From: Escherichia phage 1720a-02
DNA: 47,343 nucleotides
Direction: 5' to 3' (one strand)
Sequence record: KF030445.1
The position numbers were made by a program. Shown here piece by piece: positions 6,001 through 9,000 of this stretch; the first letter of the stretch is position 1, and each line of letters begins with the position of its first letter.

Positions 6001-9000
6001 TGTCCGTGATGCGTTTTTCTGAGAACCAGAATTCATACTGTACCGTCGGGTCATACACCGCCAGCACCGGTACTGCTGTTATCTGAAAATACCCCGGCGT
6101 CAGTTCAATTCTGGCCGGTGCCGCCGGTGCATTAATCCGGAATGTGGTGGTGGCAGGTTCGCCCTGCTGGCCGTAGCTGTTTATCGCCCTGACCGTCAGG
6201 GTGTATTCCCCGAGCGGCAGGCCACTGAAACGGTGCTCCGTGTCGGCAGTGATGGCGCTGGTCACCAGGCGGCTGTTTTCACCACTGCCACTGGTCAGGC
6301 GCAGACTGAAGCGCACGCCCTTCACCACCCGCGGCGTGTCCCATTTCGCCAGCGCCAGATACTGGCCGTCTGAGGCACTCACCTCCACCGTGAGGTGCTG
6401 CACTGCCGGCGGGATGACGCTGTTCAGTGAGCCGGACATCGGCTCAAAGCGGGCCCCGTTATCCACAATGGCTTCTTTTTCCGGCACATGCTGCACCGCC
6501 GTGATGGCAAAGGTGCCGTCCGTGTTTTCCCGGATGGAAACACAGCGGAACAGGCGACGACGCAGTGACGGCAGGGAGAGTCCCCACACACCGTATGTCT
6601 CCATGCCATCAGGCAGGACGCTGACCTGTATCCGGTCAGGGGCGGGGTGTGCAGTGATGTCCACGCGCACCGGCTTACCGCTGCCGTTAATCAGGTTCAC
6701 CGTCGATGTCCCTGCTTCCGGCAGTGTCACCTCACGGTCCAGCGTCAGGGTACGGCTGGCGGCATCAATGGACAGGATACGTCCGCCGGTCAGGGTCCCG
6801 GCATAGTCGTTATCACAGATTTCAATGATGTCACCGGGTGTGTGACGCAGCCCCTGAGACCCGAGCGTGAAATCCACCGTCTGCGTTTCCAGCAGTTCGG
6901 TCTTTATCACCCACAGTCCGGCACGGTGGGCCTGACCGCGGCTGGTACAGCCGAACGCATCCACCTTCAGCAGGTTGCGCCCGTAGCGCAGGATGGCGTC
7001 CGGGTCTTCCACCAGTTCCGTGGAAGTCTGCCAGCCGTTCTGCGGGTCGGTGTAATTCACCTCCACCGCCGTGTGCCGGTCCTTCAGGGCACTGAAGCTG
7101 TAGCGGAACCCCACGCCGTTATCATCCACCACCACATCGCTGTTGGTGTACGGCCACACCACATCCGACGGGCGGTCCTGAACGAACGTCAGCGTCTGGC
7201 CGTTCCATACCGGCATACAGCGCATCGCCGAGCAGAAATCCCCCAGGACATCCCACACCTTACGCTGCTGTGACAGGTACGCATTAAAGGTCATCCGCGG
7301 CTCTGTGCCCCCGAAACCATCCGGGACCGTCTGGTCACAGTACTGCCCGATGGCATACAGCGCCCACTTGTCCACGTCCGAGGCCCCCAGGCGTTTTCCC
7401 ATCCCGTAGCGCGGGTGGGTCAGCATGTCCCACAGGCACCAGGCCGGGTTATTGCTGTATGCCGGTTTCAGACTCCCGTCCCAGATACCGCTGTAGGTGC
7501 GTTTTTCCGGGTCATAGTTTGACGGCACCTGAATGATGCGGCCGCGGATATGGTAGTTCACCACCATCTGCTGGCCACCGAACTGCTCCGCATCCACCTG
7601 CAGCCCCACAATGGCCGTGTTCGGGTAGCACTGTTTCACATCGATGATTTCGGTGTATGACGACCACAGCGTTCTGTTCTGCAGCTGGTCCGTGGTACTG
7701 TCCGCCGTCACCCTGACCATCCGGATGTTAAAGGGGCGCTCAGGGAGATTATTCAGAATCACCGACGTCAGGTACTGCGAGGTGGTCTTGCCGTTAATGG
7801 TGACATCCTTCTCCGTCACCCAGTTACCGTTACGCTCAAGCTGAATCAGCAGGCGGACAGAAGAGGGATTACGGTCACCCTTTGAGGTGGTCTCCACCAG
7901 TGACTGCACCCCGAAGGTGACCCGCAGACGGTCAATGTTCGCTGACGTGATGGTGCGCGTCACCGGCTTTGCCTTCGTCACCTCCACGCCCAGTGCGGTT
8001 TCCGCCCCGGAGGACTCAAAGCCTTCCGGCGGTGTCTGCTCCTGCTCCCCGGCACGCCAGACGGCGGTCACACCGTGTATCACGGGATTACCGTCCGTGT
8101 CCGTCAGCGGGGTTTTGTTCACCAGAATACTCTGCAGTCCCTTCACCGGGCCTTCCACCGGTCCCTCACCAATGGCATCAATCACGCTCATCATCTGCGT
8201 TGACTTGAGATTGTCCTTCGCCTCACGCGGTGTGTGCCCCTTGCCGCCCCCTTTACCCACTCTGTCCCCCTCTCCTGTCTGATGTCTGAATCTGTTTATG
8301 CCCAAAAACAACAGGCACCCCGGAGGGTGCCTGTGTCATGACGGAATAAAATTTCTGAAATTCTTCACATTTTTGCAAAATCCTGGTGGCGCTTATAATT
8401 TCTCTGCGTTACCGTTTTTTTTGCTGTGACATAATAATTCCTTACAGTTAATCTTCGTATCTCTTCCCGCAGCTCCGCAACACTGCGGGATTTTTTTATT
8501 TTTATCCCCGCCCGATAACCACCACTTTCCCGTCTCCGCCCTCATCACGGGTGCTGATGTCCTGGGATATCCGTCGTGAACCAACCAGCATTTCACCGTA
8601 AGGCACCGGCATCGGGTTACCCTGGGCAATCATGTTGTCCAGTGAGGAGAAATACGTGTTCCGTTTACCATTATCTGTTGTCGTGGCAGACGGTGTTTTC
8701 GCCCTGGGGGTGAGCATCTGCGTGATACCCCCCACCATCATAGCCACCCCAAGATTACCGATGACAGCACCAATACCGGTCCAGCTGAACACATATCCCA
8801 CAACAGCCAGAACAGCACCGGCCACCACCTGAAGAACACCGCCGTTTTTTGCCCCCTCCGTCCGGGGCACCAGATGGATAACATCCCCGTTATTCAACGG
8901 TTCACATACTCTGGAATGAAGCTCCTGTTCAGATACATCCCTGCCCGCAATGCGTAACTGATACCATCCCTCATACAGTTTCTGCCTGAATCCCGGCAGC

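Follow-up and report, generated by a model that had tools for sequence, protein, structure and literature searches.

A predicted small RNA cassette of the PasB/EcOnc22-24 family lies reversed between tail genes I and J of Escherichia phage 1720a-02

Two sets of small RNAs (sRNAs) described in pathogenic Escherichia coli are the closest known relatives of a predicted promoter-to-terminator unit that lies between tail genes I and J of Escherichia phage 1720a-02 (sequence record KF030445.1; the whole stretch of 47,343 nt was analysed and is called the window below). The first is PasB (pathogenicity-associated sRNA B), an 83 nt RNA of enteropathogenic E. coli (EPEC) O127:H6 strain E2348/69, encoded in prophage PP6 (NC_011601.1, minus strand, 1466343..1466261) and confirmed by Northern blot with probe AATCCCGCAGTGATCGCGGAGCT (Pearl Mizrahi et al. 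2021, PMC8550237, Table S6). PasB is strongly lowered in an hfq deletion strain (log2 fold changes of -6.8 and -2.4) and is more abundant in overnight static lysogeny broth (LB) than in Dulbecco's modified Eagle medium (DMEM), a pattern opposite to that of Spf. It took part in 37 interactions detected by ligating and sequencing interacting RNAs (RIL-seq), with partners including ftsZ, the tolC 5′ untranslated region (5′UTR), ler, perB, bfpB, bfpI, fabR, ffh, glk and the yrdD-smg spacer (PMC8550237). Its seed has been placed just upstream of the terminator (Zhu, Shabalina and Storz, 2026 preprint, 10.64898/2026.05.13.724894). The second set comprises EcOnc22 (prophage Sp15, Stx1), EcOnc23 (Sp14) and EcOnc24 (Sp11), three homologous + strand peaks obtained by cross-linking of Hfq followed by cDNA analysis (CRAC) in enterohaemorrhagic E. 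coli (EHEC) O157:H7 strain Sakai; EcOnc22 gives a Northern band of about 85 nt and is destabilised when hfq is deleted (Tree et al. 2014, PMC4104026, Table S2). Very probably, nt 8346-8497 (+ strand) of the window form a self-contained sRNA cassette, a variant of PasB and EcOnc22-24 set in reverse between I and J of a lambdoid prophage of Shiga toxin-producing E. coli (STEC), the RNA of which would act in trans as an Hfq-dependent riboregulator.

The window is 100% identical to one region of E. coli STEC435 (NZ_CP129348), and gene limits were taken from the RefSeq annotation of that region (Table 1). The same sRNA variant is also carried by E. coli SCU-106 (NZ_CP053234). A preliminary description, made from the sequence of the window alone, had put the I-J gap at about 240 bp, against about 60 bp in lambda, and had placed in it a plus-strand promoter with a perfect TATAAT, a canonical terminator about 70 nt further on, and no open reading frame (ORF) between the two. 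All of this was found again. The spacers measure 241 and 60 bp, and the single promoter-like site of the + strand scan has TTTGCA and TATAAT elements 16 bp apart. The terminator, which begins about 70 nt past the promoter, has an 8 bp stem (8465-8472 / 8483-8490, in which U8465 and CCCGCAG pair with CUGCGGG and A8490), a 10 nt loop and a run of seven U residues (U7, 8491-8497), its 3′ end stopping 4 nt before the stop codon of gene I, which is encoded on the opposite strand. There is no ORF between G8406 and the terminator: nt 8406-8497 contain no ATG and only two-codon frames (GTG-ACA-TAA and TTG-CTG-TGA), and ORF 8298-8429 begins upstream of the promoter. By folding, the RNA body is unstructured, with eight consecutive U residues at 8415-8422, so that both sequence features looked for in an Hfq-dependent sRNA are present, namely a rho-independent terminator with a U7 tail and a U-rich, single-stranded body.

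Promoter-like matches are no more frequent here than by chance when taken alone (one in 2 kb, 0.9 expected from shuffles). The significance of the unit comes instead from the joint occurrence of promoter and terminator within a noncoding dip in GC content (33-44% across 8300-8500, versus 52-67% in the flanking I and J genes), and from features conserved over 44 variants. An RNA of about 95 nt had been anticipated; the length predicted from G8406, 7 nt past the -10 element, is close to this (92 nt) and a homologue, PasB, is published, but the mature RNAs of the relatives are shorter, at 83-85 nt. If the window RNA began where the annotated PasB 5′ end of E2348/69 aligns (about 8420-8423), it would measure about 77 nt. 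No Rfam 15 family reaches its gathering threshold over 8200-8620, and the hits at E <=10 are far below threshold (e.g., rseX, 18.8 bits versus 50).

The PasB interval sits between an I-like tail assembly gene and gpJ of PP6, on the strand opposite to both, and window 8470-8492, when reverse-complemented, is almost identical to the PasB Northern probe. Alignment extends throughout the two spacers, the predicted transcripts are 77.8% identical in a global alignment, and blastn at word 11 matches the window unit to PasB with 82.6% identity over 69 nt (E=3e-11, 82% query cover). Shared with PasB are the I-J locus, the antisense orientation, the promoter position with TATAAT, a similar length, the GCGUUA start motif, the U-run, the UNAUCUU core, and an identical terminator stem and U7 tail. 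Differences are found in the 5′ body (GCUGUGACAUAAUAAUUCC versus GCCCGAGUAACAAAAACAACUCC), just 3′ of the core (CGUAUCUCUU versus CAUUUGUCUGUC) and in the terminator loop, which is 1 nt shorter. The earlier proposal of an independent sRNA antisense to the late operon is thus upheld by a homologous unit at the same place in E2348/69, which is the published PasB. Judged by sequence, the window unit is a diverged variant of the PasB/EcOnc22-24 family, so this type of sRNA has already been described. At word 28, a PasB query gives no match to the window (the longest common word is 17 nt). The bacterial survey of Zhu et al. ran BLAST at word 28 (10.64898/2026.05.13.724894) and would therefore miss the window variant.

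The coordinates of Tree et al. refer to an older version of the Sakai genome, and the shift to NC_002695.2 was calibrated with two RNAs located by Rfam (AsxR, +135..139; AgvB, +137..146). In NC_002695.2, all three EcOnc22-24 coordinates land in I-J spacers whose genes are on the minus strand, and any shift from +124 to +152 places the three peaks wholly inside the sRNA units found there. The published EcOnc coordinates are about +137 to +139 nt off NC_002695.2 at 1.27 and 1.94 Mb, and direct mapping lands beside the sRNAs. The Sakai I-J spacers of Sp15, Sp14 and Sp11 each carry an identical 91 nt unit that is 78.9% identical to the window unit; on the + strand of NC_002695.2, the matching intervals are 2902836-2902926, 2676767-2676857 and 2166817-2166907. 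The Sakai unit shares the I-J location, the strand opposite to the late genes, the core GUUAAUCUUC and the terminator with the window unit, and differs in having a weaker promoter (AATAAT, with a poor -35) and a shorter 5′ body. Given the calibrated shift, the unit very probably matches EcOnc22-24, and PasB and EcOnc22-24 would be one family. This link is stated neither in Table S6 of PMC8550237, which cites EcOnc homologues for PasA and PasD, nor in the 2026 preprint (10.64898/2026.05.13.724894).

The comparison of I-J spacers that the preliminary description had suggested thus places the PasB unit and those of Sakai Sp11, Sp14 and Sp15 in the same spacer and finds lambda without the cassette. 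The lambda I-J region has no + strand promoter, sRNA or terminator, whereas the window has about 160-180 bp of additional low-GC DNA between the I stop codon and a late-strand hairpin. Relative to lambda, a low-GC cassette carrying the predicted sRNA is inserted between these two points. A moron, in the sense reportedly given to the word by Juhala et al. in 2000, is an autonomous promoter-terminator unit of deviant base composition, located between genes that are adjacent in relatives. Absence from lambda, low GC (33-40% in the cassette) and a sharp cassette boundary are all found here, while RNA cargo and reversed orientation are atypical.

Relatives of the unit were gathered by an IMG/VR scan with the terminator as bait, which gave 128 copies from at least 120 loci, representing 44 distinct transcripts of 90-102 nt. 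Among the 44 variants, the features that are fixed or nearly so independently of the bait are the -10 position (occupied by TATAAT, AATAAT, GATAAT, TATCAT or GATAAA), the GCGUUA start motif (GCGTTA at G8406 in the window), the U-run and the U-AUCUU core. The window copy, with its perfect TATAAT, has the best promoter of the family. The rest of the RNA body is variable, and the consensus fold retains the terminator only and leaves the core single-stranded. That the unit encodes a very small protein instead of a regulatory RNA can be given hardly any credence: it draws on the general fact that some sRNAs are dual-function, and is contradicted by indels of non-triplet length throughout the body among the variants, as well as by the missing ATG and the upstream start of ORF 8298-8429.

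Of 5426 complete E. coli genomes, 1874 were found to have relatives in a sensitive search with a 161 bp module, which gave 6267 places and up to 11 per genome; none of the 12 matches listed from this search has an annotation. A scan of one genome per species returned only two exact matches to the terminator pattern, both on short contigs, and added no taxonomic breadth. These two loci (L009, NZ_FWPT01000051.1, 460 bp, Parendozoicomonas haliclonae; L010, NZ_JBHTEB010000006.1, 3408 bp, Streptomyces flavalbus) are PasB units of E. coli type and look like contamination.

When the 170 bp upstream of the start were aligned for the 46 unique contexts, similarity was seen to begin abruptly at ATAAAAWTTCTGAANNTCTTCACATTT. 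Beyond it stand alternative sequences: the J start together with a GGCACCC hairpin, a hairpin of unrelated sequence (as in locus L015), or a second sRNA cassette. Tandem cassettes occur in the I-J spacer of locus L012 (9780-10260, minus strand) and also in L020, L122 and L068 (all from IMG/VR), each cassette following a block AAAATTTCTGAAATTCTTCACATTT. In these tandem phages, the J-proximal cassette has a different body and a different terminator (CUCCCG...CGGGAG plus U6).

Within the conserved upstream block, both half-sites of a dyad, TCTGA and TCACA, are invariant over the 46 contexts, while four of the six spacer positions vary and sequences farther upstream are unrelated. Such a pattern is that of an operator for a dimeric regulator, and the dyad matches the CRP core TGTGA-N6-TCACA at 9 of 10 positions, making it a candidate CRP-like site with atypical spacing (it is centred at -44.5 relative to the predicted start, versus -41.5 for class II CRP promoters). 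Three one-mismatch matches to TGTGA-N6-TCACA were found in the window, against 1.4 expected, which is not significant; the site is retained as a candidate because it is conserved across contexts, not by single-window statistics. The other two matches lie at 28663-28678 (+), about 25 nt upstream of the STnc100 5′ end, and at 37860-37875 (+), abutting the C4 RNA. The expression pattern of PasB, opposite to that of Spf, is compatible with CRP control and not specific for it.

In alignment A2, the core appears as columns T44 and A46-T50, which are invariant and lie outside the search bait, and it is unpaired in both single-sequence and consensus folds. For a seed test, the PasB sequence of E2348/69 was divided into 14 nt sliding windows and scored against five fragments recovered as its RIL-seq targets, with 20 shuffles and many windows. 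This replaced whole-length RNAduplex runs of sRNA against targets, which had given meaningless end-to-end duplexes. Only one region showed a run of excess pairing, PasB windows 45-52 (ATTGATCTTCATTTGTCTG), with z of -3 to -3.9 versus shuffled targets. The motif AATGAAG occurs in three of these fragments; in one of them it is at the tolC start codon, and CAAAUGAAGA there is an exact complement of PasB UCUUCAUUUG. Variants of the core, U[A/G]AUCUU[C/U][A/G]U, differ by transitions only, and pairing with 5′-AUGAAGAUUA is kept through G-U wobble. These features are suggestive of a UNAUCUU core that fits start regions of the AUGAAGA type. Target prediction had also been proposed beforehand; the window variant gave z of about -1 on the same fragments. 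The target set of the window variant may differ from that of PasB, because no excess pairing was seen with the EPEC fragments. One core target within the window, ATGAAGATCA at 44323, was discarded; it lies inside ORF 44241-44975 but not in its reading frame, and such a match arises by chance in 14% of shuffles.

For the window copy, the case for a trans-acting sRNA cassette is directly supported by homology, anatomy, conservation and distribution. In its homologues, the RNA is 83-85 nt long and dependent on Hfq, and forms Hfq-mediated chimeras with mRNAs such as ftsZ, the tolC 5′UTR, ler, perB and bfpB/I. In a lysogen, host RNA polymerase would transcribe the cassette from its own promoter, apart from Q-dependent late transcription. 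The RNA would end at the U7 terminator, and U7 together with the U-rich 5′ part would bind Hfq, leaving the single-stranded core GUUAAUCUUCGU to pair in trans with host and accessory mRNAs. Probable targets would be AUGAAGA-like sequences at or near start codons, regulated as in classical Hfq-dependent riboregulation. Activity of the window variant is inferred, as are its seed, a target motif and a regulator that acts through the dyad.

Several observations weigh against this interpretation. The window copy is only 78% identical to PasB and 79% to the Sakai form, with a difference directly adjacent to the core (UCUUCGUAU versus UCUUCAUUU). The 5′ end derived from the -10 element (G8406) is about 15 nt off the PasB 5′ end annotated by read coverage, and the assignment of EcOnc22-24 depends on an inferred, indirectly calibrated coordinate shift between Sakai genome versions. 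Invariance of the terminator is a product of the bait and so provides no evidence, and a covariation test of its stem is uninformative. In the published accounts of PasB and EcOnc22 compared here, no target is reported to be repressed or activated. With the EPEC fragments, no excess of pairing is seen for the window variant, and the seed analysis, with five targets, 20 shuffles and many windows, is suggestive only.

The position of the cassette could also point to an action mainly in cis, in which the RNA pairs with the I-J stretch of the late mRNA, to which it is perfectly complementary, either at induction or on leaky transcripts in the lysogen, and cleavage by RNase III uncouples I from J or lowers J and the downstream lom/stf, trans partners being secondary. 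In all tail-gene contexts compared (E2348/69, Sakai Sp11/14/15, STEC435 and L015), the unit is oriented strictly antisense to the late genes, it fills most of the spacer, with its terminator reaching almost to the I stop codon, and the cassette has been kept at one junction across very many prophages. However, the RNA overlaps only untranslated spacer and neither a coding sequence nor a ribosome-binding site (that of J is about 130 nt from the RNA 5′ end), although a processing site is possible. The Hfq dependence of PasB and its chimeras with many unlinked mRNAs are the behaviour of a trans-acting sRNA, and expression takes place in lysogens, which contain essentially no late mRNA. Moreover, the body diverges freely around a short fixed core, as expected of a trans seed, whereas a cis-antisense RNA stays complementary with any sequence. 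A mainly cis role is considered unlikely.

Table 1. Positions of the I-J spacer elements and of other RNA genes in the window.
Feature	Position	Strand	Basis or detail
gpJ gene	4793-8260	-	GTG start per RefSeq annotation of the 100%-identical STEC435 region, and ORF list
Gene I (tail assembly protein)	8502-9041, stop 8502-8504	-	STEC435 RefSeq annotation and ORF list
I-J intercistronic spacer of the late (tail) operon	8261-8501, 241 bp		J start 8260, I stop 8502-8504
Terminator-like hairpin ACAGGCACCC-UCCG-GGGUGCCUGU then UGUUUUU, just upstream of the J ribosome-binding site	8303-8334	-	Terminator scan, fold
Conserved block ATAAAATTTCTGAAATTCTTCACATTT, candidate operator	8346-8372	+	Dyad TCTGA (8354-8358)-N6-TCACA (8365-8369)
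Sigma-70-type promoter	8372-8399	+	-35 TTTGCA 8372-8377, 16-bp spacer, -10 TATAAT 8394-8399; 10/12 matches
Predicted primary transcript, PasB/EcOnc22-family sRNA	8406-8497, 92 nt	+	G8406 is 7 nt past the -10
Candidate seed GUUAAUCUUCGU, single-stranded, just 5′ of the terminator	8447-8458	+	Invariant core U-AUCUU at 8449-8455
Intrinsic terminator	8465-8497	+	Terminator scan and folding; likely Hfq-binding 3′ module
STnc100	28426-28638	-	Rfam
C4 antisense RNA	37875-37962	-	Rfam
isrK	37987-38063	-	Rfam
Three tRNAs	30236-30484	-	Rfam

The preliminary description had noted a second hairpin at 8326-8345, upstream of J on the late strand. It exists in that setting, but its position is 8311-8334, 13 nt leftward and outside the sRNA; its + strand letters are (A)CAGGCACCC-CGGA-GGGTGCCTG(T). 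The fold has an energy of -25.9 kcal/mol (z -4.4), and the E2348/69 version of this J-proximal hairpin keeps the stem and has an altered loop. Promoter scan and inspection found no late-strand promoter inside the spacer for a second RNA ending at this hairpin. In lambda, too, a GC-rich late-strand hairpin followed by a T-run lies shortly before the J ribosome-binding site, its sequence being unrelated. Late-strand hairpins with a T-run before J are thus seen in three non-homologous forms: in the window (8303-8334), in lambda (L131, 265-290) and in loci of the L015 type. The hairpin of the window is assigned to the late operon because unrelated hairpins fill the same place before J in different phages. 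It may serve as a terminator for polymerase unmodified by Q or as a structure protecting mRNA ends. A 41-codon frame with a TTG start (8253-8378, minus strand; 28 codons if counted from the ATG at 8341) passes through the hairpin and into the J start. It lacks a Shine-Dalgarno sequence, the hairpin accounts for its conservation, and it is probably not a gene.

Because lambda, though it lacks the sRNA unit, also has such a hairpin before J, and non-homologous forms occur elsewhere, one might ask whether the role of all the spacer elements is in the late operon, where they would stabilise mRNA or act as terminators or insulators, the + strand RNA being a functionless by-product or this copy a decaying relic. 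The chance-level frequency of the promoter-like match and the lack of target regulation in the accounts cited above would agree with this. However, the hairpin at 8311-8334 is separate from the cassette, the boundary of which falls between them, and the + strand hairpin, which follows an A-run when read on the late strand, is no terminator there. Furthermore, conservation over 44-46 variants and in tandem duplicates extends to the -10, the start motif, the dyad and the core, the homologues are abundant Hfq ligands, and the window copy has the best promoter of the family. This explanation is accordingly judged very improbable.

Several other RNA genes of the window score above their Rfam gathering thresholds: STnc100 (a PasD relative), C4 antisense RNA, isrK and three tRNAs. 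STnc100/PasD, AgvB and AsxR resemble the I-J unit in being short Hfq-binding RNAs of lambdoid prophages, with their own promoter and terminator, that are convergent with or antisense to late transcription. They differ in site, being downstream of PR′/Q near stx or lysis genes, and have no sequence similarity to it. AgvB and AsxR were rejected as the identity of the window unit since they occupy the PR′ moron site, not I-J. Both are sponges, of GcvB and FnrS, and we know of no such action for PasB.

What this comparison adds, from sequence, is the proposed unification of PasB with EcOnc22-24, the distribution of the unit among genomes, its nature as an inserted low-GC cassette, the near-invariant dyad and the invariant UNAUCUU core. 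Relatives are present in about a third of the complete E. coli genomes, in up to 11 copies and with none annotated among the matches listed, which amounts to an annotation gap; the search setting of the largest published survey misses the window and EHEC variants. Viewing these RNAs as one family joins the RIL-seq data of EPEC with the CRAC and Northern data of EHEC, and supplies a natural allelic series for work on seed and targets. Among the partners of PasB are ler, perB and bfp, which are virulence regulators, and tolC, an efflux/porin gene, and therefore copy number and variant type could affect the control of virulence genes in STEC. The general picture of prophage sRNA function is unchanged, and the unit is a solid but ordinary case. 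A more far-reaching proposal, which we regard as tentative and rather doubtful, is that PasB, EcOnc22-24 and the window variant belong to one widespread, multi-copy and sometimes tandem family in which the dyad operator (possibly through cAMP-CRP) sets expression, the fixed core reads starts of the AUGAAGA type (tolC, ler, smg) and the variable flanks give copy-specific targets. If true, a lysogen with multiple lambdoid prophages would have a catabolite-tuned set of riboregulators related to one another, and these might also act in cis at the I-J junction of the late mRNA.

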